Part shown: positions 3,125-36,016 of the stretch, in pieces
How the letters are laid out: the number at the start of each line of letters is the position of its first letter
Numbering within the stretch: the first letter of the stretch is position 1
NCBI GenBank assembly: GCA_021780155.1
Contig: JAJXZH010000024.1
Coordinates: forward strand, 1-55,099
Direction of reading: 5' to 3'
Length of the DNA: 55,099 bases
Source: a bacterium
Lineage (GTDB): Bacteria; Patescibacteriota; Minisyncoccia; UBA6257; JAGOQP01
The notes under the pieces: model-generated
Databases searched by the model: none
What the model saw: the letters and a program-made list of their open reading frames with translations, nothing else
What the model was told of the DNA's origin: nothing
Program-made: the position numbers and the translations under genes

Positions 3125-3551
3125 AAACTGATTATACCACCAAAGGCAACCAAACAATAAACGAGATAAAAAAAGTTCGATATGCCCCAAGATAAACAGA
3201 ACACAAAAGATTGATTTTAAAAAATAATTTTTATCAGATCTTTCTATTTCTATAATAATTTTTGTTATTAATAAACTATTTTGTCTATCAATCCCCTTGC
3301 CGGACTTTTTCTAAAAATTTTTTTGTCTTGCCGGACTTTTTAATAAATTACACATTTCAATGCCAAGTTATAAATCCTTTTTCAAAAAATAAAACAAGAC
3401 ATCAAAAAAAGCTAGTATCCATGCCGAAAGTGAGTTTCCGCATGAAACCTATCTTTTTTAAAAAATGGTAAAAATAGTGTGAAACATTCGTTTTTCAAAA
3501 AAAGTCACCTATCGCATGAATACTGGCTTTTTTGAAATTGTTTCACAAAAA

Positions 3552-3567
3552 TGTTTCACGTGAAACA
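3552..3567. promoter_or_regulatory. parS: parS site (ParB-binding centromere-like site)
   Basis: Perfect TGTTTCACGTGAAACA palindrome, matching the established parS consensus. Confidence 0.92.
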
Positions 3568-3605
3568 TTTTTAGCCATATTTTGATGGTCAAAAACGAGA
3601 TAAAA

Positions 3606-3621
3606 TGTTTCACGTGAAACA
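3606..3621. promoter_or_regulatory. parS: parS site
   Basis: Perfect TGTTTCACGTGAAACA. Confidence 0.92.
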
Positions 3622-3685
3622 TTTTCTTTCAAAATAATCCGGCAAGGTAATTATTTGCCTTGCCAAGCTCTTTGCCGGACTTCAT

Positions 3686-3701
3686 TGTTTCACGTGAAAC
3701 A
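3686..3701. promoter_or_regulatory. parS: parS site
   Basis: Perfect TGTTTCACGTGAAACA. Confidence 0.92.
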
Positions 3702-3766
3702 TTTTCTTTCAAAATAGTCCGGCAAAAGTAGTTTAAAAAATGAAAATTAACATATATAATATATTT

Positions 3767-4195
3767 ATGGATAATATAGAGATTGGAAAAATTGGAGAAA
3801 ATATCGCCTGTGGATATCTCGTGAATAACAATTATAAAATAATTGAACGAAACTATAGAGAAAAAATGGGAGAAATTGATGTTATCGCAAAATCTCCAGA
3901 TAAAACCTTGACTTTTATTGAAGTCAAAACAATCTCTGTGCCAAACTTGCCTGTGGAAAAGAGTCCGGCAAGTTATCCACACCTTGCCGGACTCAAATAT
4001 AATCAAGATGACGATTTTTTATATCCGGAAGATGAAATGAGTGTTTCAAAGATAAAAAAATTTAGACGGATCTGCCAATGGTATGCCAATCTAAAACCCA
4101 AACTGGTTAATAATAAAGGATATCAACTTGACGCAATAACTATATTATTGGATAATAATAAAAAAACTTTAATAAAGCACTATAAAAATATATAG
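3767..4195 (+). CDS. yraN: YraN (UPF0102) family nuclease-like protein with an internal insertion
   Basis: GKIGENIACGYL, IIERNY, GEIDVIA, FIEVKT, LDAI, HYKN; alternative start at 3740. Confidence 0.9.
   Translation: MDNIEIGKIGENIACGYLVNNNYKIIERNYREKMGEIDVIAKSPDKTLTFIEVKTISVPNLPVEKSPASYPHLAGLKYNQDDDFLYPEDEMSVSKIKKFRRICQWYANLKPKLVNNKGYQLDAITILLDNNKKTLIKHYKNI
3973..3981 (+). promoter_or_regulatory. Perfect DnaA box inside yraN, flanked by inverted motif copies
   Basis: GAGTCCGGCAAG-TTATCCACA-C-CTTGCCGGACTC; a second box, TGTGGAAAA, lies at 3952-3960. Confidence 0.6.
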
Positions 4196-4909: not shown

Positions 4910-5419
4910 ATGATTATTTTAGGAATAGACCCGGGAAGCACGCGTGCCGGATACGGAGTGATAAATTTCCCGCAAAAAGGAGGGCAAAAACCCGAGTTTA
5001 TAGACGGTGGGATAATACAGGTATTTTCCAAGGACAAAAGCCAACGCTTGGTAGATCTTAAAAATTCTCTTATCCCAATAATCAAAAAATTTTCTCCGGA
5101 CGTTGCTGGAATAGAGAAATTATATTTTGTCAAAAATATGAAAACCGCTCTGGAAGTGGCACAATCGAGAGGAGTAATTATGATGTGCCTTCAAGAAAAC
5201 AAAATACCAATGGAAGAGTTTACCCCTCTTGAGGTAAAACAAGGGGTCTGTGGATACGGCAATGCCGATAAGATAGCCGTCACTAAGATGGTGAAGAGAA
5301 TTCTTAAAATAGAGGATTTAAATCAACCGGACGACGTTTATGACGCTTTGGCAATAGCAATTATTTCCGGATATTCAATAAAAAACAAAAAACCGGAAAA
5401 TCAACCCAAAAACCTTTGA
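4910..5419 (+). CDS. ruvC: Holliday junction resolvase RuvC
   Basis: ILGIDPG, IEKLYF, GYGNADK, DDVYDALAIA. Confidence 0.96.
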   Translation: MIILGIDPGSTRAGYGVINFPQKGGQKPEFIDGGIIQVFSKDKSQRLVDLKNSLIPIIKKFSPDVAGIEKLYFVKNMKTALEVAQSRGVIMMCLQENKIPMEEFTPLEVKQGVCGYGNADKIAVTKMVKRILKIEDLNQPDDVYDALAIAIISGYSIKNKKPENQPKNL

Positions 5420-5477: not shown

Positions 5478-5741
5478 ATGTCTAACGAATTATTGTTAAA
5501 TTTTCCTTTGGCGGCTTTCTCTAATTTAGATTACGACAGCGAAGATGACGAATTTGAATACAAAGAGACGAGATTGGACAGTAGCAGCAAAGACGAAGAC
5601 GACGAGGATGATGTAGATAAAGAGTGGGATGAAAATATATCCACGGGAGATGATGACGACGAAGATGACGAAGAAAAAGACAAAGAAAAAGAAGAAGACG
5701 AAGAAGATGATGACGACGAGGAAGACGAAGACGAAGAATAA
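5478..5741 (+). CDS. Highly acidic small protein
   Basis: 87 aa with about 55% Asp/Glu; upstream TTGACA-N16-TATATT promoter-like sequence and downstream terminator. Confidence 0.65.
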   Translation: MSNELLLNFPLAAFSNLDYDSEDDEFEYKETRLDSSSKDEDDEDDVDKEWDENISTGDDDDEDDEEKDKEKEEDEEDDDDEEDEDEE

Positions 5742-9796: not shown

Positions 9797-11176
9797 TTAA
9801 GAACGACTTTTGTTAATGGATTCTTTTATAAGGACTATTTTTTGGTTTAAATTTTTATCCGACATTATTTTACCTGATATTTTGTTGTAAGAATGAATAG
9901 CGGTGGTGTGATCTCTTTTTCCCAACTTATCCCCAATATCCGGATAAGACATCCCCAACATATCCCTCAACAGAAACATAACTATTTGTCTCGGCATGAC
10001 TACTTCTTTTCGTCTTGATTTGGTAATTATGTCTTGAGGATTAATTTCAAAAAAATCAGAAACGCATTTAATCACCAGCTGAGGATTGATGTTAACCATA
10101 TTTTGCTGAAGAGTGGCGTTGATTATTTCTTCGGCTGTTTTGGCATCAATTTCATTATTTTTAAATTCTTTATAAAAAAATAATTTGTTTATTATCCCTT
10201 CTATCTCTCTGATGTTTCTTTGAATTTTGACGGCGATAATGTGATTGACTTCATCGGGGAAAATAATATTTTTTTCCAGAGTCTTGTTTTTTATAATAGC
10301 CAGTTTCATTTCATAATCGGGATAAGTGATGTCGGCAATCATTCCGCCTTCAAAGCGCGATCTTAGCCTGTCTTCAAGCGTCGGGATTTGAGATGGGGGC
10401 CTATCCGAAGACAAAATAATTTGCTTGTTGTTTTGATAAAGAATATTGAAGGTGTGGAAAAATTCTTCCTCACTTCTTTCTTTTCCTCCAATAAATTGAA
10501 TGTCGTCTATAATCAAAACATCCACCGTCCTATATTTATTTTTAATATCGTCCATTCTTTTTGTTCTGATTGCCCAAACGACATCATTAACAAATTTTTC
10601 CGAAGGAACATATTTTACTTTAATTCTGCCTTTAAAATTTTTGAGTATTTCATTTCCAATCGCCTGAATTAAATGGGTTTTTCCCAATCCTGTTCCTCCA
10701 TAAACAAAAAGAGGATTATATTTTTTTCCGGGCTCTTTGCTTACGGCATTAGCGGCGGCGTAAGCCAATTCATTTGAAGATCCGACGACAAAATTTTTAA
10801 AACAATATTTAGGATGAAGATTTGTTTCCGGGTCGGCGGCAAATTCAATAAATCCTATCTGACCAACCCCTCCTTGCTCGGGAACTTTTTTATCGTCCGA
10901 ATAAATTCTTTTGTTTATATTGCTGTCGGTTAAAACGACATAATCAATTTTATTTATAGCAGGGTCGAGATTTCTCATAATTTCCAAAATCATCTTGCTG
11001 TATTTTGATTGGATCCATTCTTTGGCGAAATTATTGCTTACGCCGATAACAATCGTTCCCGACTGCTCGTTTTTTTCCATAGGGCGACTATTTTTAAACC
11101 AAGTTAAAAAATTGGGTTTTGAAATTTGAAGTTCTACGTCGGATAAAGTTTTTTCCCACAATTTTTTTAGGTCCAT
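9797..11176 (-). CDS. dnaA: Chromosomal replication initiator DnaA
   Basis: YNPLFVYGGTGLGKTHL, DDIQF, RLRSRF, RDHTT. Confidence 0.98.
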   Translation of the reverse strand: MDLKKLWEKTLSDVELQISKPNFLTWFKNSRPMEKNEQSGTIVIGVSNNFAKEWIQSKYSKMILEIMRNLDPAINKIDYVVLTDSNINKRIYSDDKKVPEQGGVGQIGFIEFAADPETNLHPKYCFKNFVVGSSNELAYAAANAVSKEPGKKYNPLFVYGGTGLGKTHLIQAIGNEILKNFKGRIKVKYVPSEKFVNDVVWAIRTKRMDDIKNKYRTVDVLIIDDIQFIGGKERSEEEFFHTFNILYQNNKQIILSSDRPPSQIPTLEDRLRSRFEGGMIADITYPDYEMKLAIIKNKTLEKNIIFPDEVNHIIAVKIQRNIREIEGIINKLFFYKEFKNNEIDAKTAEEIINATLQQNMVNINPQLVIKCVSDFFEINPQDIITKSRRKEVVMPRQIVMFLLRDMLGMSYPDIGDKLGKRDHTTAIHSYNKISGKIMSDKNLNQKIVLIKESINKSRS

Positions 11177-11243
11177 TTTATTATTGAATTAAAATTTTAT
11201 TTTAAAGAAAGGTTTTTAATAAAACAAAGAACAAATACACTTT

Positions 11244-24139: not shown

Positions 24140-27100
24140 TTAAATTTCTGTTGTGGTGGTGATAGTTATTGTCTCTTGATTTTTGGAAGGGGAAGAAACG
24201 ATTTCGGAAGTCGTTGCGGTATTTGTTTCATTTTGAGTTTCCGATGTGGTTGTTGTAGTCAGAAGTTCAACTTCGTTGATTTTTATCTCTTCGGTTGTTG
24301 TTGTTTGGGTTGTTGTCGCTTCTTCTGCCGTTTTGGCAAAATCATTTTCTATAATTTCGGTCGTTGTTTGTGTTGTTGTCGCCAGATTTAGCAATTCCGT
24401 TTCAATTATTTCAAGATTTTCATCTAAAGAATTTTCCGATTCCGGACTGACGACGATTAAATTTGATTCGTTCGTGTTTAATTTTTCATCGTTTGCCAAA
24501 TTATTTATTGTCGAAGTCGAGTTCACGGGCAATAAATCTTGATTTTCGTTTTTTACAACAATATCCAGCTCTTTCAAAGATGAGCTCGCGTTGTCATTTT
24601 CGGTTGATGTGGCTTCGGTTGTGGTTGCGAGAGTGGAAGTTGTTTGGTCGAAAATTCCTTTTATTTTAATTGATTGATTTTTTGGCTGAGAAAGGAGATT
24701 TGCCATCTCGGTTATTGTCTGAGGATAACCAAACAATCTGAAAAATATATCTTTTGTTGAATGCTCGGCCCAATCTACGCCGGAACTTCCCGGTTTTCTA
24801 AAGACATAAACATTTGTTTCGGTGGGAGTGTTATTTGCCATGGATATGGAAAGTCCCTGGTCTCTATTTGATACATCTCCGTTTAATGTTTTCACTTCAA
24901 AAAAATAATTTCCTGGAGTCAAAAGCAATGACTGATCCATTTTGATATCAAAAATCTTTTGCTCAAAGTAATACAGCGCGGGAATTTGAGTGATGACTTT
25001 AGAATATATTTCGGTAAGTCCGTTATTGGGATCAGACGATGTCCCATCAATTAAACTGATTGAAATTCGCGCATCAAAACTAGAAGGCGGAATTGTTTGA
25101 TTCCAAAATTGTTTTATATTATGCGCTTCCAAAAGCAGTTCGGTTATTTTGCTCGGATTTTTTATATTGATTTTCTCTCCGATTTTGTAGATTTGATTTG
25201 AGTTTTCGGTGGTGGCAATGTCGTAGGTTCTGTCCCAAGGATATTTTTCCGTCGTGCCGGCAATAAATTGAGGCGGATTAAAATCCAGGATGAAACTTGA
25301 AACTTCAGACGGCAATCCAAAATTGTCTTTGGCTCTCAGATAAAATTTATATTTTCCCGCATCCCCCAGAGAAATTTCTGGACCGGTTTGGAATAAATTT
25401 CCGTTGCTTATGGCATATTGTTTATAAGTTTTATTCCACAAAAGCGAGGAATTATTTTCTGTTTCCGTTGATGTTGAGTCGGTTGATGTGGAAACGGCAT
25501 ATTCATAAGTGATGAGTTTGTCCACGCTGTCTTTATCGGTTGTGTCGTCCCAAGTTAAAAATACATGAGGGTTATAGATTTCTTCATCGTGAAGTTTAAC
25601 TGCGAAGTTTTGAATTTTTTCCGGCGGATAATGTTTCGGCGCCGGATATTTTAGATAGTGTTTTGTTTTATCAATCGCCGCCAATTTTAAAATTTCTTCC
25701 CACCCACTCCAAACGCTGGAATGGTCATAAGCATAAAAAGCGACGGTCACATAATCGTTTTCCGATAGCTCTTTTTGAGGAAGCGCTTTTAACAAAAACG
25801 ATTTATCTTCAAAATATTCTTTTGATGGCGTGCCGGACATTAAACAATAAAGCGGACAAGGATCCAATACATCTGCCGACATAAACATATTTAGCGGACC
25901 CGGATAAGCGGCGCAATGATTGTAATCGACAGTTAACAAACTGGCGGCAATTTCTTGAGATTGTGTTTTATATCCGCCTTCAATCATCGGCTCTTTTGCC
26001 GCTTCGTGATTTAGAAAAAATACCAAAATTGAGCCGTTTAGATTTCCCCGCGGAGCATATAAATTGGGGACAAACGGATATTGAGAATATCTTCCCTCTA
26101 AATAATATCCTTCGTTTCCGTTAGAATCTTTTTGTTTAAAAAAATCGAGCGAATCCAAAAAACTCGGAAAGTAAATTGAAGCGGTTGTTGTTGGTGATGA
26201 TAATCCTTCGGCGTCCATCGCTAAAATTGACCAAAAATAATCCCTTCCAATTTCGTCCACATTTTTTGATATTGATGATGAAGCGGTTTGCCCGATTTCA
26301 TTTTCTTTGTCGTCAACAATTTTATAAGTCAATTTATTATTTTCCGAAATTGTAGAGCTCGAAGTTGAAGTTGAAATAATCTCCGAGCTTGATGTTGTTT
26401 GCCAGGATGCCGATAAAATTAAACTTGTCGTTGAATAAGAAAGTGAAAAATTTTCGACAGCCAAAGGAGCATTTCTTGGTTCGGCTAAATTCAAAAGTCC
26501 TTGAGGACGAGGATTTTGGCGAATTTCAAAATCTCCTTCAGGCATTCCGGTTTTGCATCCATTGCCCAAAAATTCGCCTTCGTTTTTTGGACTTACGCAA
26601 AAATTTCCGCTTAAAGCCAACCGTTCTGCACTTTGATTTGAATCGGGCGCTGTCACGGAAAATACATTCGGCAAATTAACATCTCCGTAGGCGATGTAGT
26701 CAATAATAGAGAGGTCGTTTTCGGAAGGTATTGGTTCGATTGAATTTGACAAAAAGACAATCGCCGAACTTTTTGAAAGAGAATAAGAATAAATCAAGTC
26801 GGGATTTTTTTGGGAATAAATGCCGTCTTTATTCGCCAATAAAAAAAATTTTAACGGCGGAACGACGATGTCTTCGTTTATTTTTGCCAAAAAGTGGATA
26901 TTGTGAGTGGAGGTTGCTTGTCCGCTCAGATATTGCAGGGAGTATCCCTTGAGAGAAATGGGATTTTGAGTCGGATTATAAAGCTCAATAAATTCATCGT
27001 CCGGATTTTGTCCGTCGGTTTGAATTTCACTAATAACCAAATGAGTTGGCGTTCCGGAATATTTTTGAGTTTGGGAAAAAATATTTTCTTTTCCCGGAGT

Positions 27101-29950
27101 GGGCGCCGATTCTTTCCATCCGTCAGAAAATTTTTGGATTGATTTTCCGTTATCGTTGCCTCCCCATTCCGGTAAGTAATTTACCTCATCGATTTTCAAA
27201 TCGCCATTTTTTATGGCGATTATTTTACCGCTATTGTTAAGCGAAAAAGAGCTGTCAAACAAAGCAAAAGATTCATCATAAATTTGGCCATAAATTGCCG
27301 GATAATCCAGCTTGAATTGCTCGGCATCGTCGGCGATGACGGCATATTCTCCGGCACCGATAGTTGTCGGTCCTCCCCTTAAAGATAATAAATGCCCCGT
27401 TTCTCCTTCAAAAATTTTCCATTTTGCGATATCCACCGACGTTTCTCCGCTGTTATAAATTTCTATCCACTCCCGATTATTGTCGGCCCCTTTTGGGTTA
27501 TACATTATTTCATTTATAACAATCGGATAAAATTGCGGAGTTTCTTTGGGTGTCGGATTGTCTTGAGCGGTTTGAGAATTGGAAGTTGAATTAGTTGTTC
27601 CGCCTCCACCGGATGAATATCCAAAACTATTTTCGTTTTTGGGAGTGCCACCGATGGTCGCTGATGTATGCCAACCAAAAAAGTTTGAATTTCTTTCGGC
27701 GGTTCTTTTGGAAGAGACATCTCCCGAAGGCCAGTTGGGCGAGGCGATAATTTCGTCAATTAGTCGGCAATTGGCATCAAATAATCTCAGTCCGCTGTTT
27801 TCGTTTGCCAAAGACCCTGAATAAATCAAATCGGCCTTGATGTTGGCAACGGAGTTGTCGTCGGTTCTTTCCAATAATAAAAATTTTTCCGTATTTGAAT
27901 TTGGGGCAAATTTTATTTTTCCCAGATCTATTTCTATTTTGTTGTCTTTGCCTATCAGTTGGTAGCCGGACAGGTTCAATTCCGAGTTTGAAATATTTTT
28001 TAATTCAATCCACTCGTCATTTGAGCTATTTAGCGTTCCCATCCAAGCCACTTCGTTGATAATTAAATTTTTAAGCGACGGGGTTTGATTTTGACCCGAT
28101 GAAAATTGACAGAAGTTTTTTATTTCACTAGAAAGATTATTTGAAGTGTTGTTGTCGGCATTTGATTTGTCGGTTGTATTTTGATTTTCGGTATTGTCGC
28201 TATTTTGTTCTTCACTTGAGCTGGCGGTTGTGGTTGATGTTAAATTATTTGCTGTCGTGTCTTTTTTACAAGCCGGCCCCCAAAGTCCTAATTTTGATGC
28301 GCGAGCTGTCGTTTGCGCGTCCAAAAATTCTTGGTCTTTGGAATGTTTTTGACCGAAATTATAGGCGTAAGCATAACCTTCGGCAACCAATATTTCGTTT
28401 GCCAAATTATTGCCGTCCCAAACATAAGCCAACGTTCTGTCATATTTGTCGGTTCTTGTTCCGGGGATATATTCAAGGCGGACATTTTTGTTGAGCGTCA
28501 ATTCTTTGTTTCTTTGAAGGGCCTCTTCGGCAAAACAATCGCTTTTGCCTTGTCGGTAGGCAATTTCCGGAGCATCAATCCCGATGTAGCGGATAACCGT
28601 TCCGTTATCCAAAACTATCGTGTCGCCGTCTATCACTCGCGATACTTTGTATGTCTTGGTGGATTGGTTTTTGCTCGAACCGGTTGTTGTCGGCGGGGAA
28701 ATTTTATTGTTGATTGTGTTTTCGTTTGTTGCGGAATCAATCGGAGAGCTTGAGTTCTGAATCTGATTTTGCCCATCGGACGGGATTTGAGAAATTTCTT
28801 GAAAGTCGTTTCCACTTCCAAAAACTCCCAAAACAAAATTTTTGGCGGAGTTCCAACTATTTTTGACTGCATCAGCGGCTTGAGCCAAAAATGATGGAGA
28901 TTCTTTTTTGGCAAATGCTGGATTGTCTTTATTTTTTTCAACTTCGTTAAAAAATAAATTTATCGCTCCGGCGCTGTATTGAGTCGCTTTTTTTGATAAC
29001 AAGGACCAGTAGTCTTTTAAAACTTGATCTCCTCCAGATTTATTAACTGATAAGACATAATTTTCTTTACTTGATGAGACGGAATTTAATATGCTTTGTT
29101 TTTTAACAATTAAAATTTTATAAGTATTTCCAAATTGATCAGTTTTATATTCGTAATTATAATCGCCTTCTACTATTGGATAATCTGGTTGTGGCATTGA
29201 ATATCCGCTTTGAATTCCGATAGTGTCTTTGCTGTAAAAATTATTATTTGAGTAAGTCGCCATCCGGTCAAAATAAGAATTCAAGTCAGCCAATTCTATT
29301 GGTTTTGAATTTTTTATGCTTTGAGTTAGTAATGTGTCCGGATGGGATAAGGTATATTGAGTGGAATAATTTTCATAAGGACTATCTCCCGGATGGGGGT
29401 CGTTTCGGGTATGGTCGGGAACCGAAACATCCTGTATGAGGTGAGCGATGTGTCCTAAGGTAAACATCGCCATTTCTTTATCTCCTTGTATCCAATACTT
29501 CATTGCTTCGTTCCAGGTAAAATCCGCCGTTGGGAAAAACTTTTCTATTTTGCCCGATTGGATTGAAGAAAGTATAGTGGCGATTACCGGAGAATATTGA
29601 ATTCTGTTTTGATTGCCACCATCTTGCGCCCAGAGTTTTGATGCTTGCCAATCTCCCAGTTGGTAAAGGGGCTCTATTTTTCCGTCTTGAGAAAGCCCTC
29701 TATTATAAATTGGGTCATAAAAGTGATTCATCCAGCGGGGAGGGTCGTCTTCGCGTCTAACTCCGTCCAGCAGATATTTTTCAAGGTCGGAGTTTATTTT
29801 GCTTGAATAATTGTTATTAAATAGTTTTATAGCGGTGTCGGAAATAAATTCGTGAGTTCCGGAATCGTAAGCGAGGGTCAATTTGAAATTAAAAATAAAA
29901 AGTCCCAGTATTACCGGGACCAAAAAGATTACATATTTTCTATTTTCCAT
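24140..29950 (-). CDS. Large secreted multidomain protein: zinc phospholipase C/P1-nuclease-like domain, thermonuclease (SNase), three lamin-tail domains, FN3-like regions, Thr/Glu-rich tail
   Basis: Signal peptide; AYDSGTHE, NHFYDP, GHIAHLIQD, PDH; RVIDGDT, IGIDAPE, DKYDRTLAYV; IINEVAW, VINEIMYNP, VISEIQ. Confidence 0.85.
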   Translation of the reverse strand: MENRKYVIFLVPVILGLFIFNFKLTLAYDSGTHEFISDTAIKLFNNNYSSKINSDLEKYLLDGVRREDDPPRWMNHFYDPIYNRGLSQDGKIEPLYQLGDWQASKLWAQDGGNQNRIQYSPVIATILSSIQSGKIEKFFPTADFTWNEAMKYWIQGDKEMAMFTLGHIAHLIQDVSVPDHTRNDPHPGDSPYENYSTQYTLSHPDTLLTQSIKNSKPIELADLNSYFDRMATYSNNNFYSKDTIGIQSGYSMPQPDYPIVEGDYNYEYKTDQFGNTYKILIVKKQSILNSVSSSKENYVLSVNKSGGDQVLKDYWSLLSKKATQYSAGAINLFFNEVEKNKDNPAFAKKESPSFLAQAADAVKNSWNSAKNFVLGVFGSGNDFQEISQIPSDGQNQIQNSSSPIDSATNENTINNKISPPTTTGSSKNQSTKTYKVSRVIDGDTIVLDNGTVIRYIGIDAPEIAYRQGKSDCFAEEALQRNKELTLNKNVRLEYIPGTRTDKYDRTLAYVWDGNNLANEILVAEGYAYAYNFGQKHSKDQEFLDAQTTARASKLGLWGPACKKDTTANNLTSTTTASSSEEQNSDNTENQNTTDKSNADNNTSNNLSSEIKNFCQFSSGQNQTPSLKNLIINEVAWMGTLNSSNDEWIELKNISNSELNLSGYQLIGKDNKIEIDLGKIKFAPNSNTEKFLLLERTDDNSVANIKADLIYSGSLANENSGLRLFDANCRLIDEIIASPNWPSGDVSSKRTAERNSNFFGWHTSATIGGTPKNENSFGYSSGGGGTTNSTSNSQTAQDNPTPKETPQFYPIVINEIMYNPKGADNNREWIEIYNSGETSVDIAKWKIFEGETGHLLSLRGGPTTIGAGEYAVIADDAEQFKLDYPAIYGQIYDESFALFDSSFSLNNSGKIIAIKNGDLKIDEVNYLPEWGGNDNGKSIQKFSDGWKESAPTPGKENIFSQTQKYSGTPTHLVISEIQTDGQNPDDEFIELYNPTQNPISLKGYSLQYLSGQATSTHNIHFLAKINEDIVVPPLKFFLLANKDGIYSQKNPDLIYSYSLSKSSAIVFLSNSIEPIPSENDLSIIDYIAYGDVNLPNVFSVTAPDSNQSAERLALSGNFCVSPKNEGEFLGNGCKTGMPEGDFEIRQNPRPQGLLNLAEPRNAPLAVENFSLSYSTTSLILSASWQTTSSSEIISTSTSSSTISENNKLTYKIVDDKENEIGQTASSSISKNVDEIGRDYFWSILAMDAEGLSSPTTTASIYFPSFLDSLDFFKQKDSNGNEGYYLEGRYSQYPFVPNLYAPRGNLNGSILVFFLNHEAAKEPMIEGGYKTQSQEIAASLLTVDYNHCAAYPGPLNMFMSADVLDPCPLYCLMSGTPSKEYFEDKSFLLKALPQKELSENDYVTVAFYAYDHSSVWSGWEEILKLAAIDKTKHYLKYPAPKHYPPEKIQNFAVKLHDEEIYNPHVFLTWDDTTDKDSVDKLITYEYAVSTSTDSTSTETENNSSLLWNKTYKQYAISNGNLFQTGPEISLGDAGKYKFYLRAKDNFGLPSEVSSFILDFNPPQFIAGTTEKYPWDRTYDIATTENSNQIYKIGEKINIKNPSKITELLLEAHNIKQFWNQTIPPSSFDARISISLIDGTSSDPNNGLTEIYSKVITQIPALYYFEQKIFDIKMDQSLLLTPGNYFFEVKTLNGDVSNRDQGLSISMANNTPTETNVYVFRKPGSSGVDWAEHSTKDIFFRLFGYPQTITEMANLLSQPKNQSIKIKGIFDQTTSTLATTTEATSTENDNASSSLKELDIVVKNENQDLLPVNSTSTINNLANDEKLNTNESNLIVVSPESENSLDENLEIIETELLNLATTTQTTTEIIENDFAKTAEEATTTQTTTTEEIKINEVELLTTTTTSETQNETNTATTSEIVSSPSKNQETITITTTTEI

Positions 29951-30516
29951 ACGTTTGAGTATTTATTTAATATTAAATTTATGTCATAAAGTAATTTTCC
30001 TTCTGCGTTTCTTATTTCAAATCCAAATTTTCCGTCAGTCCATGATCCCGCCGGAGTTGCTTTTGATAGCAGATTAACAACGTCATTTAATTTTCCAGAC
30101 AGTTTCAGTTCATTGAGATTACTTAACCAATTAGCATTCCTCGTCCCGTCATCGTCTAACAAAAAATAATTTGACGCCAGATCAACATTTCCGTTTTTAA
30201 GAGCTTCAATAAATAAATTTAAGGTGTCTTGCGGTGTCGCTCCTCCGTAAGTGTCGGCTTCCATAGCTGCCTCGTATTTTTGTTGGAAATTAAGATATTT
30301 TTGGTAGTTTGCTTCCGATTGGCGAGCGTATCGCGCCGATGGGCTCAAATAGTTTTCCCAAGAATAATATCCTCCGGCAATTAAAATCAAAATTCCCAAA
30401 AAAATTGAAGCAAATATAATAAGGTGTTTTCTTTTTGGTCCTTTTTTAAAACCGGAAGAAACAAACCCATCTTGAGAATATTCTCCCGAAACAAAATCAT
30501 TTTTTTTATCATCCAT
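29929..30516 (-). CDS. Hypothetical membrane-anchored protein overlapping the start of the large secreted protein gene
   Basis: Single TM helix; DTYGGATPQDTLNLFIEALK motif; 22-bp overlap. Confidence 0.7.
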   Translation of the reverse strand: MDDKKNDFVSGEYSQDGFVSSGFKKGPKRKHLIIFASIFLGILILIAGGYYSWENYLSPSARYARQSEANYQKYLNFQQKYEAAMEADTYGGATPQDTLNLFIEALKNGNVDLASNYFLLDDDGTRNANWLSNLNELKLSGKLNDVVNLLSKATPAGSWTDGKFGFEIRNAEGKLLYDINLILNKYSNVWKIENM

Positions 30517-30692
30517 ATATTTTATTGGTTAATTTTAAGCGCAAAAAATCCATCGCGAGGATGGATGTTAAAAGACGGTAAACAAAGCTAATAAAAAAAG
30601 CGCCCCCTTCTGCAATTAAATCGGTAAATGAGTGAAAATATTTTGCTCATTTTTTATATTATATCACCACTTTTCATTGATAGCGGTAGATT

Positions 30693-30701
30693 TGTGGATA
30701 A
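30693..30701 (-). promoter_or_regulatory. Perfect DnaA box upstream of the winged-helix gene
   Basis: TGTGGATAA about 30 bp upstream of TTGACA (30731)-N17-TATGTT. Confidence 0.5.
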
Positions 30702-30767
30702 CTCTCCTTAATTGTAAATTTTAGCAAACATTGACATAAACAAATTTTAGTTTTATGTTTTGATTAA

Positions 30768-31682
30768 ATGTATAGCAAAGAATTTTTTATACAAAGGTCT
30801 TTTGAAGTTGTTTGGGCGGTTTTTAGGGTCGCCGAACACACAACCAGACAAAAAATAAAACAAGGTCTCGAAGACAAGGCGGTTGATTATTTATTGGCAA
30901 AGGATTTGATGACTTTGGATGGATTGGAAGAGGTTGTTCGCCTTTCGGGACAAATAAAAGAAATCAATCAAATAAATACCAGTGTTCTTTTGAGAGAAAT
31001 AGGAAATTTAAGAGCGGCGATGTTGGAACTTGATGGCACCCAGAGAAAACAACTCGCGTCGGCCATCACTCCGGAAAATGCGCCAAAAATTGAAGAAGTC
31101 TTTTCTCGTCCGCCGATGAGAGTTTCGGATTTGATAGAAATTATGAAAAAGAGCGGTTTTGAGATAAAAGAAAGTAAGGTGGAAGAAAAAGAACCGGCTC
31201 CAAAAGATTATTTGGAAAAAAATTTATTGGAAACAAACAAATCAACGCAGACGAATAATATTTATTTTGGCAAAAGTCCGGCAAGGGAAGAAATCAATTT
31301 TGTAAAGGAAAAGCAGGAAGAAATTAAATATGAGCATAAAGAGTCCGGCAAGGAAGAAATAAATAGTCCGGCAAGGGAAGAAAGTCCGGCAACTGCCAAT
31401 CTAAATAGTCCGGCAAGGCAGGAATCCGGCAAGGAAGAAATAAAAAGTCCGGCAAGCAAAAAAGATAGATTTGAAGCTATTATTGGTTTTAAGGAGAGAA
31501 ACTCAATTATAATGGAGGTTTTAAACAAGAGATCTCTTTGCCATACCAAAGATTTAGTTGATGCTTTGCCGAATATCAGCGAAAGAACGGTAAGATACGA
31601 CATTCAACGCCTTGTTGATAAGGGAATAATAGAGAGAGTCGGTACTGGTGGTCCCAATTCGTTTTTCAGAATCAAAAAATAA
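30768..31682 (+). CDS. Protein with a C-terminal winged helix-turn-helix (DeoR-like) and an internal repeat linker
   Basis: C-terminus ERNSIIMEVL...ISERTVRYDIQRLVDKGIIERVG; SPAR/ESGK repeats. Confidence 0.8.
   Translation: MYSKEFFIQRSFEVVWAVFRVAEHTTRQKIKQGLEDKAVDYLLAKDLMTLDGLEEVVRLSGQIKEINQINTSVLLREIGNLRAAMLELDGTQRKQLASAITPENAPKIEEVFSRPPMRVSDLIEIMKKSGFEIKESKVEEKEPAPKDYLEKNLLETNKSTQTNNIYFGKSPAREEINFVKEKQEEIKYEHKESGKEEINSPAREESPATANLNSPARQESGKEEIKSPASKKDRFEAIIGFKERNSIIMEVLNKRSLCHTKDLVDALPNISERTVRYDIQRLVDKGIIERVGTGGPNSFFRIKK
31275..31456 (+). repeat. Seven direct copies of A(G/A)TCCGGCAA(G) within the wHTH gene
   Basis: Copies start at 31275, 31342, 31365, 31383, 31407, 31423 and 31446. Confidence 0.85.
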
Positions 31683-31902
31683 CGTTATAAATGGTAAAAA
31701 ACGATAAAAACGTTAAAACATCAGGGAAAACCTTAGCTATTCTTGAAATTATCGGGTCAGTTGGAAATAACAGGAGAAAACGCATAATCGCATAATATAG
31801 AGCAATATGACCTGTAACGTCTTTGGTTATTCTTCGTTTTTATTATTTGTAACCAACAAAGTCGGTAGTTTATTTTCAAAATAAGCGCAATCAATTAACT
31901 AT

Positions 31903-31932
31903 TTGACATTTTGTAATTGATTCGTTTATACT
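31903..31932 (+). promoter_or_regulatory. Sigma70-type promoter, probably for the S-layer-like gene
   Basis: TTGACA-N18-TATACT. Confidence 0.55.
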
Positions 31933-32120
31933 GAAAATGTTACAAGTTAATAGTTCCGTTCTTTCAAATAATATTTGAAGGAGTGAGGCGGAGCACAAGC
32001 AAGATATAGTCGGCTTTATTGCCGAATATTCACTGCTGATTTATCGCCTCACGAAAGTGAGGATTTTTATTTTTATAAATTCCTCGCTCACCTCGCTTGG
32101 CGACGTGAATCAGATAGGCA

Positions 32121-32331
32121 CAAGCTTGGAATGACAGGCGTGTGTCATCCCGTTGGAAAACGGGATCCAGGAGTCACAAGAACAAAACTCTGGATTCCAA
32201 ATCAAGTTTGGAATGACAAGCTAAACAAAAATCTGGATTCCAAATCAAGTTTGGAATGACAAGCTAAACAAAAATCTGGATTCCAAATCAAGTTTGGAAT
32301 GACAGATTTAGAATGACAGAAAAGAATGACA
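32121..32331. repeat. Palindromic (REP/RPE/dRS3-like) repeat array upstream of the S-layer-like gene
   Basis: TGGATTCCAAATCAAGTTTGGAATGACA units at a 43-bp period, plus GTCATCCCGTTGGAAAACGGGATCCAGG. Confidence 0.85.
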
Positions 32332-32770
32332 GGGGAAAACATATAAATATATAAAAAAATCTTGTTCGGTGCTAAATTCTAAAAAATTGGAATTTAACAC
32401 GGACCAAGATTTGGTCCAAAAAGAAATCAAGAATGTTAAGAATAAATTGATGGAGGATAGTTTATGAATGTAATCCGAAATTGATGTTAACCTGCGTCGA
32501 CTCGTCAAAGATGAGTTGAAAAATTTTAATTTGCCTCGCGTTTGTTTTTGTTAATTTTTGTAAAAAATATCCGTCCTTGTTTTTTAAATAAAATAAGGAC
32601 AGCACTTAATTTATTATAGGAGCTCTTCTGATTATTAACTTGCTGATGCGTCCTCACCGATGAAGCAGTGGGTCGATAATAATACGAGAATAGCTTTCTG
32701 AAATCCAATTTAATTTTGAATTAAATTTAGTCAAAAATAAAATAATAATGTATTTTCTGTAAAACCTAAA

Positions 32771-35700
32771 ATGAGTACTGCAAAAAAATTAGCAGTCGTT
32801 GTGTTATCAATCGTTATGGTTTTTGGAGCTTTTAGCTTTAATGCTAATGCTCAAACAACCACTGACTTGCAAACGCAGATCGCGACCTTGCTCGCTCAGA
32901 TAAATGCTTTGAAATCACAAATGGCTGCTTCACAAGGAGGCACTACATCTTCTTCTTATAGCTTCACCAAGGACCTCACCCTCGGTAGCAGAGGAGCTGA
33001 TGTTTCTGCTCTTCAGCAAATTTTGATAGATGGCGGATTTCTTAAAATCTCCGCTCCGACCGGATACTTTGGTGCGATGACCAAAGCCGCGTTGGCAAAA
33101 TATCAGGCAGCGAATTCAATTTCGCCTGCCGCCGGATACTTTGGCCCTAAAACCAGAGCATTCATAGCATCGCAAACAACCGGAACAACCGGAACAACCG
33201 GAACGACTGGAACTACCACTGGAACAACCGTTCCTGCAACTGGTGGATTTAGCGTTTCGTTGGCTTCGGACAACCCGAGTGCTTCAAATATTCCTGTTAA
33301 TGGAGGAAATATTCCGATGTTGAAACTTAATTTCAGCGCGGGAGCTACTCCGGTAAATGTAACTTCTTTCCAAGTTACAAGAAGTGGACTTTCTGCCGAT
33401 ACTGACCTTCAAAATGTTTATCTCTATCAAGGAGGAACAAAGTTGGCCAGCAATATGGGGATTTCTAACGGCGTAATCAACTTTAGTCAATCTACTGGAC
33501 TCTTTACGGTTCCAGCAAATTCTACGATTGAAGTTACTGTTTCCGCCGATATCACCAACAATTCAGGTTCCGCCAGTCATGTAATGTCATTTGGCGTCGC
33601 CTCGGCTTCGGCTATTACCGCTTCAGGTTCCACGACCGTTTCGGGAACTTTCCCAATCAATGGAAATCCGATGTCGTTGGTTTACATTTCTAATATCGGA
33701 TCATTGCAAATTACCAATTCAACTTACTCGTCAACAAATGTTAATGCCGGACAAACGGGATATTTAATTGGACAAGTTAATTTGCAAGCTGTTGGAAGCG
33801 ACCCGATCAAAGTCAGCTTGCTTCGATTTACTGATATCGGAAGTGTCGGCTCTTCGGCTTTGCAAAATCTTAAGTTGATGAATGGTAATACCCAATTGGG
33901 AAACACTATTTCAGCTCTTGATTCAAGCAATGTGGCATTATTTGACTTATCGTCAAATCCGCTTATGCTTGCTGCCGGACAGACGGTTACTTTGGGAGTT
34001 TATGCGGATGTTATGCCAACCTCTAACAGCGTTGGAAGAACTTTCCAATTTACTCTTCAGCAACCTTCGGATATTAGCGCTGTTGATAATATGTACAGCG
34101 TTGGTCTTTTGCCTACCATTAACGGAACTGTTAATGGATCTTCGGCAAATTCGTGGCCTGTTTCTCTCTATAACATAACTGTGAATAACGGAGGATTGGT
34201 TATGTCTTTGGACTCAACCTCTCCTTCAACTTACGTTGTTGCGGGAAACACTCATCAAGTTATTGCTAAATTTGACGTGTTGGCATCAGGCGACACCGTT
34301 AGATTGAACGACTTGGTCTTTAAGATTTCTGGAAGCACAACTTCAACTTTGAACAATGTTCAAATTATGGGTTCTTCCGGACAACTTGGAACCACGGCTT
34401 CAACTTATGTAATGGGGTCAAGTCTTGATCTTAACACCAGCAATTCTTTGAACTATATGATTGCGGCTAATAAAACCGATGTCATAACCGTTTATGCCGA
34501 TATTCCAGTCGGAGTTACAGGAACAATGACTGCTCAAATCGTTTCTGGCTCGGCTCAAAGCAATACCAGTTATGCATCTGTTGCAGTTGGTGGAGTAACA
34601 AGTAATTCTTTGAATGTCTTGTCGTCTACTTCCAATTTGACTGCTGCCATAAACTATGGTTTGGGATCTCCGACAGTTTCTGCTGGTCAACAAGGAGCTC
34701 AATTGGCTTCATTCAATTTGACCGCCGGACAAGTTAATGATATTTCCTTGTCGGGAGTTACGGTTCAATTGGCTAACAATGCCAGTCTTGCTTCCGAACT
34801 TTCAAACTTTGTTGTGAAAGTTAACGGAAACGCTATTGGTCAAACTACAGCTTTGATGAATGCAAATTCCAGTCAGACATTCAGCGCTGCTGCTCCGATT
34901 GTAGTCAAAGCCGGAACAACTGCCGAAGTTGATGTTTATGCCAATCTTTCCAACACCTTGACGGCTACCGGAACATTTAACCCAGTCTTTACCTTGTCTT
35001 CGGTTAACGCCAATGTTGTTAATGGAAACAGTGTTTCTGTTTCATCTGTTCCTGGTCAATCAGTTCTCTTAACGACCGGAGGAGCTCTTAGCGCTGTCAT
35101 TGATGGAGCTTCGGCTCAATCTCAGTATGTTGGAATGGGTGTAAGCAACAATTCGTTGGCTACATACAGATTCAATACTGACACCAATGGTTCGGCTACT
35201 TTGACTCAGGTTGTTGTTCAAGACAGCCCGAGTGCGTCAGCTTCAACAACCACTTCCACGAGTGGAGGAGACTTCGTCAGCTACGCGTTGATGCAAGGCA
35301 CCACTCAGTTGGCTAGTGGAACATACGCAAATGGTTTTGTAACCTTTAACTTGAGCGGATTAAGCATCCCTGTTAACAGCTACGCTTCTTTGAGCGTTGT
35401 TGCTTCCTCGAATGTTTATCCTTATGCTTCATCTTCTGCCGCTCATGCTATGTGGTTGAGTTCATTCCAGTACACCACTCCAGCCGGATCTCACACAGTG
35501 ACTCCGTCTAGTGTCCACGGAAATCTATTCACGATTTACCGCTCGGTATTGGGTGTAACTCAAGGAGCTAACGTCACCGCTCCGACCTCAATTTCTGGAG
35601 GTTCGGGATATGCCGTGGCTCAGTTCAACTTTGCGGCATCGCAATACGATACATTTGTAAAGCAATTAACGGTTTCTAACGCTGGTACACTTGTTCAAAG

Positions 35701-36016
35701 TTCTACCACTGTCGTTCTTAACCTTTATGCTTCAAACAATCCTTCGTTATTGCTTGCTACAACGACTCTTTCTGGAACTGCTACTAATACTTTGACTTTG
35801 AGTCCAGTTTTGGACATTCCTTCTGGTCAATCGTATACTCTGACATTGAAACTTGGAGCAGTAACCAATACGGCATCAGTAACTTCAGGCACCGGTTCAT
35901 ATCAGGTGTCACTCAATGGAGTTAAATGGAACGACAGCATTCTTGATGTGAGCACTTTGTCTCCATCAATTACCTTGCCTGTTCCTGGCCAATCAATCAC
36001 TGGTTTATCTAACTAA
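32771..36016 (+). CDS. S-layer-like surface protein with an N-terminal peptidoglycan-binding domain
   Basis: Signal peptide (ANA-Q), DLTLGSRGADVSALQ...TGYFG...GYFGPKTR, TGT linker repeats, Ser/Thr/Asn-rich beta-type body. Confidence 0.8.
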   Translation: MSTAKKLAVVVLSIVMVFGAFSFNANAQTTTDLQTQIATLLAQINALKSQMAASQGGTTSSSYSFTKDLTLGSRGADVSALQQILIDGGFLKISAPTGYFGAMTKAALAKYQAANSISPAAGYFGPKTRAFIASQTTGTTGTTGTTGTTTGTTVPATGGFSVSLASDNPSASNIPVNGGNIPMLKLNFSAGATPVNVTSFQVTRSGLSADTDLQNVYLYQGGTKLASNMGISNGVINFSQSTGLFTVPANSTIEVTVSADITNNSGSASHVMSFGVASASAITASGSTTVSGTFPINGNPMSLVYISNIGSLQITNSTYSSTNVNAGQTGYLIGQVNLQAVGSDPIKVSLLRFTDIGSVGSSALQNLKLMNGNTQLGNTISALDSSNVALFDLSSNPLMLAAGQTVTLGVYADVMPTSNSVGRTFQFTLQQPSDISAVDNMYSVGLLPTINGTVNGSSANSWPVSLYNITVNNGGLVMSLDSTSPSTYVVAGNTHQVIAKFDVLASGDTVRLNDLVFKISGSTTSTLNNVQIMGSSGQLGTTASTYVMGSSLDLNTSNSLNYMIAANKTDVITVYADIPVGVTGTMTAQIVSGSAQSNTSYASVAVGGVTSNSLNVLSSTSNLTAAINYGLGSPTVSAGQQGAQLASFNLTAGQVNDISLSGVTVQLANNASLASELSNFVVKVNGNAIGQTTALMNANSSQTFSAAAPIVVKAGTTAEVDVYANLSNTLTATGTFNPVFTLSSVNANVVNGNSVSVSSVPGQSVLLTTGGALSAVIDGASAQSQYVGMGVSNNSLATYRFNTDTNGSATLTQVVVQDSPSASASTTTSTSGGDFVSYALMQGTTQLASGTYANGFVTFNLSGLSIPVNSYASLSVVASSNVYPYASSSAAHAMWLSSFQYTTPAGSHTVTPSSVHGNLFTIYRSVLGVTQGANVTAPTSISGGSGYAVAQFNFAASQYDTFVKQLTVSNAGTLVQSSTTVVLNLYASNNPSLLLATTTLSGTATNTLTLSPVLDIPSGQSYTLTLKLGAVTNTASVTSGTGSYQVSLNGVKWNDSILDVSTLSPSITLPVPGQSITGLSN

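Follow-up and report, generated by a model that had tools for sequence, protein, structure and literature searches.

A short DNA motif, A(G/A)TCCGGCAA(G), is clustered at two loci in the 55,099-nucleotide stretch of Patescibacteriota DNA analysed here (the window; contig JAJXZH010000024.1 of assembly GCA_021780155.1). One set of copies lies among parS sites and inside the adjoining yraN gene; the other lies within a gene for a 304-residue protein that ends in a winged helix-turn-helix (wHTH). There is high confidence that the motif is a conserved protein-binding cis-element, common to an origin/centromere module and to the linker-coding DNA of this one gene. The wHTH encoded by the same gene is, judging from sequence comparisons, the probable binder. 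The window is contig C29 of genome G000, which has 707,709 bp in 35 contigs, is 36.5% GC and is rated 99.67% complete. Relatives are numbered from G001 onward and f1 is the family of G000. The features that carry the argument, by window position, are these:

3296–3306 and 3327–3337, minus strand: a pair of motif copies, CTTGCCGGACT, bounding the parS region on the left (motif scan)
3552–3567, 3606–3621 and 3686–3701, no strand: three perfect parS sites, TGTTTCACGTGAAACA (sequence match)
3636–3646 (plus), 3671–3681 (minus) and 3716–3726 (plus): motif copies interleaved with parS (motif scan)
3740–4195, plus strand: yraN (UPF0102), with an insertion that holds a composite element (profile match stops at residue 64–66)
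3952–3993, no strand: the composite element inside yraN, made up of a DnaA-like box, motif, perfect DnaA box and motif
9800–11188, minus strand: dnaA (463 residues), about 6 kb from the parS/yraN locus
30768–31682, plus strand: the gene for the 304-residue protein (open reading frame (ORF) list, Pfam PF08220, AlphaFold2 model, homologue searches)
31275–31456, plus strand: array of seven direct copies of the motif in linker-coding DNA (positions, frames, codon test, homologue conservation)

The seven in-gene copies, which a sequence-only reading of the window had reported, are all present on the plus strand, with the 9-mer starting at 31276, 31343, 31366, 31384, 31408, 31424 and 31447. Five are read as S-P-A and two as E-S-G-K, so that two reading frames are in use. 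Codon choice is distinctive in both. SPA is written as AGTCCGGCA in 5 out of 5 cases in the wHTH gene versus 1 out of 31 in other ORFs, and SGK is written as TCCGGCAAG in 2 out of 2 versus 2 out of 95 (400 other long ORFs). This argues for selection on the DNA and against selection at the level of the peptide, as that reading had proposed from the frame use.

At the other locus, five 9-mer copies lie among the three parS sites, at 3297–3725, and two more are inside yraN; both groups had been noted before and both are borne out by the motif scan. The three interleaved copies have their TCC end toward the adjacent parS every time, with gaps of 16, 6 and 16 bp. The yraN copies are an inverted pair, starting at 3963 (plus) and 3984 (minus), and bracket a perfect DnaA box. 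The order of the composite element is a DnaA-like box TGTGGAAAA at 3952–3960, motif (plus) at 3962–3972, the DnaA box TTATCCACA at 3973–3981 and motif (minus) at 3983–3993. Genome G000 has no perfect parS sites other than these three, at 3552–3701, and has one ParB_N locus, on contig C10; there is therefore no Noc-like paralogue to claim the motif. A hairpin-like element (AAAAAGCTAGT...CCGAAAGTGAGTTTC.G...CTA.CTTTTTT) is present at 3405–3460, just to the left of the first parS, and is found again in G012 (locus L044, approximately 1185–1245) and in part in G001, G002 and G005; it corresponds to no Rfam family.

The motif is restricted to these loci. RTCCGGCAA occurs 19 times in the window, versus a mean of 1.06 and a maximum of 4 in 100 shuffles, and 66 times across G000, the 19 included. 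The strict 11-mer AGTCCGGCAAG occurs nine times in the genome against a Markov expectation of 0.1–0.6, and all nine are at the parS/yraN locus or in the linker-coding DNA. The single 9-mers that remain are about as frequent as an order-4 Markov model predicts; by eye, only isolated near-matches had been seen elsewhere. The motif is therefore not a dispersed sequence of the DNA-uptake or repetitive extragenic palindromic (REP) kind, and that candidate was rejected. An element acting at the RNA level is also unlikely, as intergenic copies occur in both orientations and antisense in-gene copies are found in G013 (two) and G003 (one). A lone copy of GTCCGGCAAT at position 63435 of contig C10 is within the ParB_N-coding part of parB and is probably there by chance.

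The array is a conserved feature of the gene. In an alignment of 33 homologues (34–79% identity) the linker cannot be aligned, yet SPA(R/K), ESG(K/N) or VRQ is present in all 33 sequences; (A)GTCCGGCAA gives these peptides in its three frames. The exact 10-mer is clustered within the homologous gene in G003 and G006 (7 copies each), G001 (5), G002 and G015 (4 each), G005, G011 and G017 (3 each), and G014 and G018 (2 each). Every full-length f1 homologue examined has the array in its linker, and the motif is kept across genera in which the proteins are only 35–45% identical. In-gene copies are nearly always on the strand of the gene, the antisense copies of G003 and G013 being the exceptions. 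Since antisense copies do exist, the sense bias may come from a constraint on the coding, the residues being S/P/A/E/G/K/R/Q in the sense frames and L/A/G/L or C/R/T in the antisense ones. Genome G005 has two further copies in the promoter of the gene itself, one of them between the -35 and the -10.

Second clusters of the exact 10-mer occur in G002 (C16, 69822–70515; 7 copies), G003 (C38, 22120–22763; 7), G005 (C1, 3413–4027; 5) and G015 (C9, 73682–74406; 11). In all four cases the cluster corresponds to two or three parS sites beside yraN, with the same motif/DnaA box/motif composite in yraN. Each genome has a single cluster of parS. Scanning of 20 further parS loci with the degenerate family-wide consensus TCYGGMAA found clusters adjoining parS in most of the genomes that encode the protein. 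At least two copies are present in the parS locus of approximately 1.5 kb in 18 of 19 such genomes, the exception being G033, and the other fetched DNA, about 4 kb per genome, contains 0–1 copies, the exceptions being G005 (the promoter copies) and G023 (beside the gene). Of the 25 parS loci examined, 14 have a perfect DnaA box no more than 25 bp from a copy of the motif. In G022, G031, G036 and G037 no homologue was found even by profile, and their parS clusters have 0–1 motif copies nearby. The suggestion that homologous genes carry an internal DNA repeat matching a motif beside the parS/oriC of the same genome is thus borne out among the relatives.

The position of the motif relative to parS is constrained. 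Within 60 bp of parS, 42 copies have the TCC end toward it, and copies with the AA end facing it are never closer than 23 bp. The gaps fall into classes of 6–7 bp (8 cases), 15–17 bp (17 cases in 13 genomes) and 28–30 bp (10 cases). Neighbouring copies in the same orientation are spaced by 10–14 bp in 27 of 50 pairs and by 22–24 bp in 14 of 50, equivalent to one or two helical turns, and arrays of 4–12 copies are phased at approximately 11 bp or 22 bp. Genome G023 has five perfect parS sites at a spacing of exactly 48 bp (L052, contig C3, 1346–1553). In G015 (L036, contig C9) parS and four motif copies form a block that occurs twice, approximately 406 bp apart (1646–1732 and 2052–2138), with identical flanks.

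In G012 the motif has changed at both loci. Its gene contains no TCCGGCAA and has instead four copies of AAGTGGAAA at exact 11 bp phasing. Its parS/yraN locus has eight copies of AAGTGGMAA; they are placed with respect to parS as the usual motif is, with gaps of 15 and 6 bp, and flank the yraN DnaA box on either side. This genome has 34 copies of AAGTGGMAA, of which the parS/yraN locus accounts for 8 and the gene for 4, the other 22 being singletons; in G000, G009 and G019 it is found only as singletons, with no clusters. By positional alignment we read the G012 motif as the usual motif without its central CC. Smaller differences are also common to the two loci. Genome G019 has only TCTGGCAA and TCCGGAAA at both, G010 has mainly TCCGGAAA at both, and G009 and G023 have AATCCGGCAAT at both. 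The recognition region of the G012 protein reads TSRTLRND and EKLGGGPSSF versus SERTVRYD and ERVGTGGPNSF. The sequence-only reading had raised covariation of the motif with the recognition helix; in G012 the motif has switched and the recognition region differs. The length of the wing does not follow the motif, and no residue-to-base code is claimed.

The parS/yraN locus appears to be at the replication origin. With dnaA about 6 kb away, the window is origin-proximal, as had been supposed, and this placement is upheld in a closed relative, G009 (561,860 bp). Its cumulative GC skew has a minimum at 125–126 kb and a maximum at 405 kb, with parS/yraN at 124.6–125.5 kb, dnaA at 130.5–131.9 kb and the wHTH gene at 186.9–187.6 kb. 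The densest cluster of DnaA boxes (no more than one mismatch) in the whole G009 genome is at 124,934–125,176, inside yraN. Because the skew minimum and this cluster coincide, the yraN site probably belongs to oriC. On contigs that hold both the gene and parS, the two are 21–68 kb apart (G000, G002, G009, G011, G012, G014, G015 and G033, and in part G006). The densest DnaA-box cluster of G000 is outside the window, on contig C16 at approximately 5098–5314, and has four boxes, two of them perfect and 12 bp apart (5294 and 5306).

The sole Pfam match of the 304-residue protein is HTH_DeoR (PF08220), at residues 244–291 (E 9.8e-9, 35.3 bits against a cut-off of 21). The AlphaFold2 model, built on the 33-sequence alignment, has a four-helix bundle at residues 4–97 and a C-terminal winged helix at residues 241–302, both with a predicted local distance difference test (pLDDT) score above 90. 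The C-terminal winged HTH that had been recognised from the sequence is therefore supported by both the profile and the model. Between the two domains, residues 134–236 are predicted to be disordered (pLDDT below 50), and this is exactly the stretch encoded by the motif array. At E ≤ 0.1 there is no Pfam match in the protein to the DeoRC effector domain, ParB_N (PF02195), or the Rep_3, RepA_N and phage O families, and none in the N-terminal domain to PF05635 (23S_rRNA_IVP); MatP is likewise not matched in Pfam. Nothing in NCBIfam is above its cut-off, DeoR/GlpR equivalogs scoring 14–21 bits against cut-offs of 244–400. Foldseek searches of the PDB found no match at E ≤ 1e-3 for either domain. 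The nearest PDB fold to the N-terminal domain is the hypothetical four-helix bundle 2gsc, a weak match (E 7e-3; template modelling (TM) score by target 0.64–0.70), which we take to be a member of PF05635. The C-terminal domain resembles generic wHTH proteins, all at E above 1e-3. Matches in the ESM Atlas were hypothetical clusters only, plus a sub-threshold fold row of the bAvd/23S_rRNA_IVP type (PF05635; TM 0.60–0.63).

The gene had been described as an orphan, which it is not. The first search found 56 homologues and an exhaustive phmmer search found 643 clusters at 50% identity with E ≤ 1e-3, 337 of them with E ≤ 1e-10. The matches are typically in two stretches, the N- and C-terminal domains, flanking a variable linker, and the recognition region is nearly invariant in the alignment. 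The searches identified a homologue in 29 of the 41 close relatives (17 of 19 within f1) and in 85 of 151 genomes of the order, in a clade-wise all-or-none pattern. A profile search of a phylum-wide sample matched 15 of 401 genomes at E ≤ 1e-8, and matches outside the order are mostly to the wHTH only. Named homologue records are from metagenome-assembled genomes of Candidatus Paceibacterota, Parcubacteria and Wolfebacteria. On sequence grounds the protein is a member of a large uncharacterised Paceibacteria family.

The remaining features of the window lie around the wHTH gene:

24140–29950, minus strand: giant secreted protein with SNase and three lamin-tail domains, 5' of the wHTH gene (Pfam)
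29929–30516, minus strand: 195-residue protein without a Pfam match, 5' of the wHTH gene (ORF list, Pfam)
30693–30701, minus strand: perfect DnaA box, TTATCCACA, approximately 72 bp 5' of the wHTH start codon (sequence match)
30731–30759, plus strand: promoter-like site, TTGACA-17-TATGTT, ending 8 bp before the ATG (consensus match only)
32771–36016, plus strand: large protein with a peptidoglycan-binding domain, 3' of the wHTH gene (Pfam)

The DnaA box 5' of the promoter had been pointed out correctly, and a box in this fixed orientation precedes the homologous gene in most of 17 relatives, perfect in 6 and with one mismatch in 7. TTGACA is visible 5' of several homologous genes. A promoter-like site only 8 bp from the ATG implies a leaderless or near-leaderless mRNA. 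A long, perfect palindrome with the centre CGATCG and arms of approximately 13–18 bp is found just 3' of the DnaA-box-like TGTGGATAAC, 5' of the homologous genes in G001, G018, G019, G010, G012 and G003. The letters of its arms vary among genomes around a constant centre. It may serve as an operator or terminator, and is absent 5' of the G000 gene. Synteny around the wHTH gene is conserved (24140–36016): all 15 named loci have the downstream family, and the two upstream genes occur at 10 and 9 of them. The gap of approximately 1.1 kb between the wHTH gene and the next (31683–32770) contains only two short ORFs, of 60 and 66 residues, and has no Rfam match. Downstream of yraN are yebC and ruvC, and an 87-residue ORF, extremely acidic (D/E-rich), is present at 5478–5741 between ruvC and a penicillin-binding-protein-like gene. 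The Rfam scan of the window found three tRNAs and nothing else.

Several observations make the wHTH of the gene itself the probable binder. The arrays are linked to the gene in every f1 homologue, the G012 change is coordinated at both loci, and the phyletic pattern points the same way. One of the G005 promoter copies is placed like an operator, a near-invariant recognition region is matched to a near-invariant motif, and there is no second ParB paralogue.

A number of observations weigh against this interpretation. The case for the binder is built on linkage and phyletic pattern, and the genomes compared are relatives and not independent samples; the metagenome-assembled genomes are also incomplete. 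The clean switch of motif rests on one genus, that of G012, and a relationship between motif and wing length did not hold up, as the shorter wing of G012 is also found in G009, which keeps CCGG. Variants do not always agree between the loci: in G008 the gene has four C-variant copies versus six T-variant and one C-variant at the parS locus, and in G006 the mixture is 7/2/1 in the gene versus 0/4/4 at parS. The variants TCCGGCAA, TCTGGCAA and TCCGGAAA therefore look interchangeable. Genome G016 (90% complete) has the motif at parS and no homologue was found in it, G033 has a distant homologue and no motif at parS, and several distant homologues have at most one in-gene copy. A tight module, parS-N(4-20)-TCYGGMAA, is present in 0 of 143 genomes of the order outside f1, 77 of them with distant homologues, as against 5 of 8 f1 genomes in the same order-wide scan. 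The tight coupling to parS is thus a trait of f1; in f5 (G023) the motif array is approximately 130–300 bp from the parS array. As for the origin, GC skew within the window alone is uninformative, the skew plateau of G009 at approximately 119–132 kb limits the resolution, and the yraN cluster of DnaA boxes is only the second densest in G000.

The phyletic exception of G016 is also what might be expected if the motif were a real cis-element bound by a different factor, such as another regulator or a partner of ParB or DnaA, with the wHTH gene merely one of its targets. The fixed motif-parS geometry and the bracketed DnaA box make a ParB- or DnaA-associated activity imaginable. This explanation is unlikely, since it leaves the arrays in the linker of this one gene in every full-length f1 homologue examined, the joint change of motif and gene in G012 and the four homologue-less genomes without the motif at parS all to be accounted for. 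Three congeners of the incomplete G016 all carry the gene. In the known precedent for an in-gene array, oriλ in gene O, it is the product of the gene that binds (PMC5043065).

It is doubtful that the protein is an ordinary autoregulated transcription factor for itself and a yraN-yebC-ruvC operon, with the proximity to parS and oriC incidental. Its DNA-binding domain is of the DeoR transcription-factor type, sites do occur 5' of yraN, which yebC and ruvC follow, and the G005 copy within the promoter of the gene would suit such a role. Most copies, however, are in coding DNA, in the linker or in the yraN insertion around the DnaA box, and not in promoters. Their orientation and spacing are fixed relative to parS and not to a promoter, they form long phased arrays, and the Pfam scan found no DeoRC effector domain. 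Low-complexity linkers often hold tandem repeats, and the G000 units have GGAAGAAAT flanks in common, so that a repetitive peptide or a recent tandem duplication, with chance copies at parS, has to be considered. An origin of the array without any DNA function is extremely improbable. A peptide repeat or chance is ruled out by the restriction of all nine 11-mers to two loci, the use of three reading frames in homologues, the concerted switch in G012 and the codon test, and the motif is kept across genera despite the divergence of the proteins.

The interpretation that we favour, with somewhat better than even confidence, is that of a family of sequence-specific binders with sites both at the origin/centromere and in their own gene, acting as an architectural or regulatory factor. 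This Paceibacteria-specific family would be built from a four-helix-bundle hub, a flexible tether of approximately 100 residues and a C-terminal DeoR-type winged helix that probably recognises the motif of approximately 10 bp, AGTCCGGCAA(G). Such a build would explain the use of sites in either orientation and at irregular spacing, if the model is correct. Copies flanking the outer parS sites of the single cluster, TCC end inward, together with the inverted pair that brackets the perfect DnaA box in the yraN insertion, may allow the protein to mark or insulate the parS-oriC module and to modulate the action of DnaA and/or ParB there. The direct array in its own linker-coding DNA, 20–70 kb from the origin, could act in the manner of iterons, as a second site through which the protein is titrated, the DNA bridged ('handcuffing') or the gene autoregulated. 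By analogy with oriλ inside gene O, the RepA_N proteins, P1 incA/incC and V. cholerae ori2, functions of these kinds, that is parS-oriC insulation or organization, modulation of DnaA or ParB, and a role for the in-gene array, are likely.

A more specific version, which is possible but tentative, is that of an iteron-like control layer on the DnaA-dependent chromosome of these ultra-small Paceibacteria. The tethered wHTH, perhaps multimerised via a bAvd-like helical bundle, would clamp the parS flanks and a key DnaA box of oriC and would also bind the in-gene array as a decoy or handcuffing site, so coupling initiation, the loading or confinement of ParB and its own dosage. On this view binder and sites would evolve together; the coordinated 2 bp change of the G012 motif suggests as much. 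The sequence-only reading had pictured a second centromere-like, origin-anchoring or replication-control system. That picture is supported in part: the restriction of the motif, the arrays in homologues, the G012 switch and the placement of the origin speak for it, the orphan status of the gene does not hold, and the binder and the function are predicted ones.

To our knowledge, nothing is known experimentally of the organization or regulation of origins in the candidate phyla radiation (CPR)/Patescibacteria. Among the top-ranked literature matches none dealt with an origin of Patescibacteria or Parcubacteria or with a parS-associated factor, which is not proof that no such work exists. The analysis yields a concrete and testable cis/trans pair, a 10 bp motif and a 304-residue protein, as well as a predicted oriC overlapping yraN and the parS cluster, with G012 as a natural specificity switch. 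Binding sites inside the coding sequence of their binder are otherwise known from phage and plasmid replicons; if correct, this would be a chromosomal case, written in all three frames. A second factor would, moreover, be wired to parS at a base-pair-fixed geometry, which bears on the loading or confinement of the ParB clamp.

In their DNA-binding domain the proteins resemble the DeoR regulators, which have an N-terminal HTH followed by a C-terminal DeoRC effector-binding domain. Here the HTH (PF08220) is instead C-terminal, there is no DeoRC match and the N-terminus is a four-helix bundle. Other regulators that are not DnaA bind oriC at sites beside DnaA boxes, among them CtrA, Spo0A, MtrA and HP1021, and at ori2 of Vibrio cholerae the crosstalk of ParB2 and RctB couples a parS site to replication control sites. 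The protein studied here differs from these in belonging to an unrelated family, in having no receiver domain and in having an extra array of sites inside its own gene.

Noc with its NBS sites and RacA with ram each bind a short specific motif near the origin and organise or anchor the region, and in Bacillus subtilis a parS is present inside parB (spo0J), another instance of a site within the gene of its binder. The 304-residue protein, in contrast, has no ParB_N domain, and its predicted sites do not extend over hundreds of kb: they occupy two loci and, at one of these, alternate with parS at fixed spacing. The matS sites of MatP are in the terminus region; here there is no MatP match and the motif sites are at the skew minimum, not the maximum. 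The comparisons with Noc, RacA and MatP are functional analogies only and not statements of family membership.

The iteron initiators (Rep_3, RepA_N and phage O) have direct repeats of their binding site in or beside their own gene, to which the seven in-gene copies here, conserved in homologues, correspond. In RepA_N plasmids the iterons occupy the variable middle of repA, and P1 (incC/incA) has a second array of iterons by which that at the origin is titrated or handcuffed. Proteins of the RepA_N family bind repeated iterons at their own origin (PMC7145576). Unlike RepA_N and Rep_3 proteins, the present family has no match to either family and has a four-helix bundle with a single wHTH in place of the Rep fold, on a DnaA-dependent chromosome. 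The skew-defined origin is at parS/yraN/dnaA and not at the wHTH gene, and a canonical DnaA is present.

In phage lambda the stretch of O that the repeats occupy is one that tolerates them. There is no sequence relationship with lambda O in Pfam, and here the DNA-binding domain is C-terminal, the replicon is a chromosome with DnaA and DnaA boxes, the skew-defined origin region is 27 kb away from the in-gene array, and parS/oriC has a second set of sites. The binding-site repeats of oriλ are within the coding sequence of O, their binder (PMC5043065). The arrangement described here is like that of O and oriλ in this respect, in that repeated sites lie inside the gene of their binder, here a predicted one.

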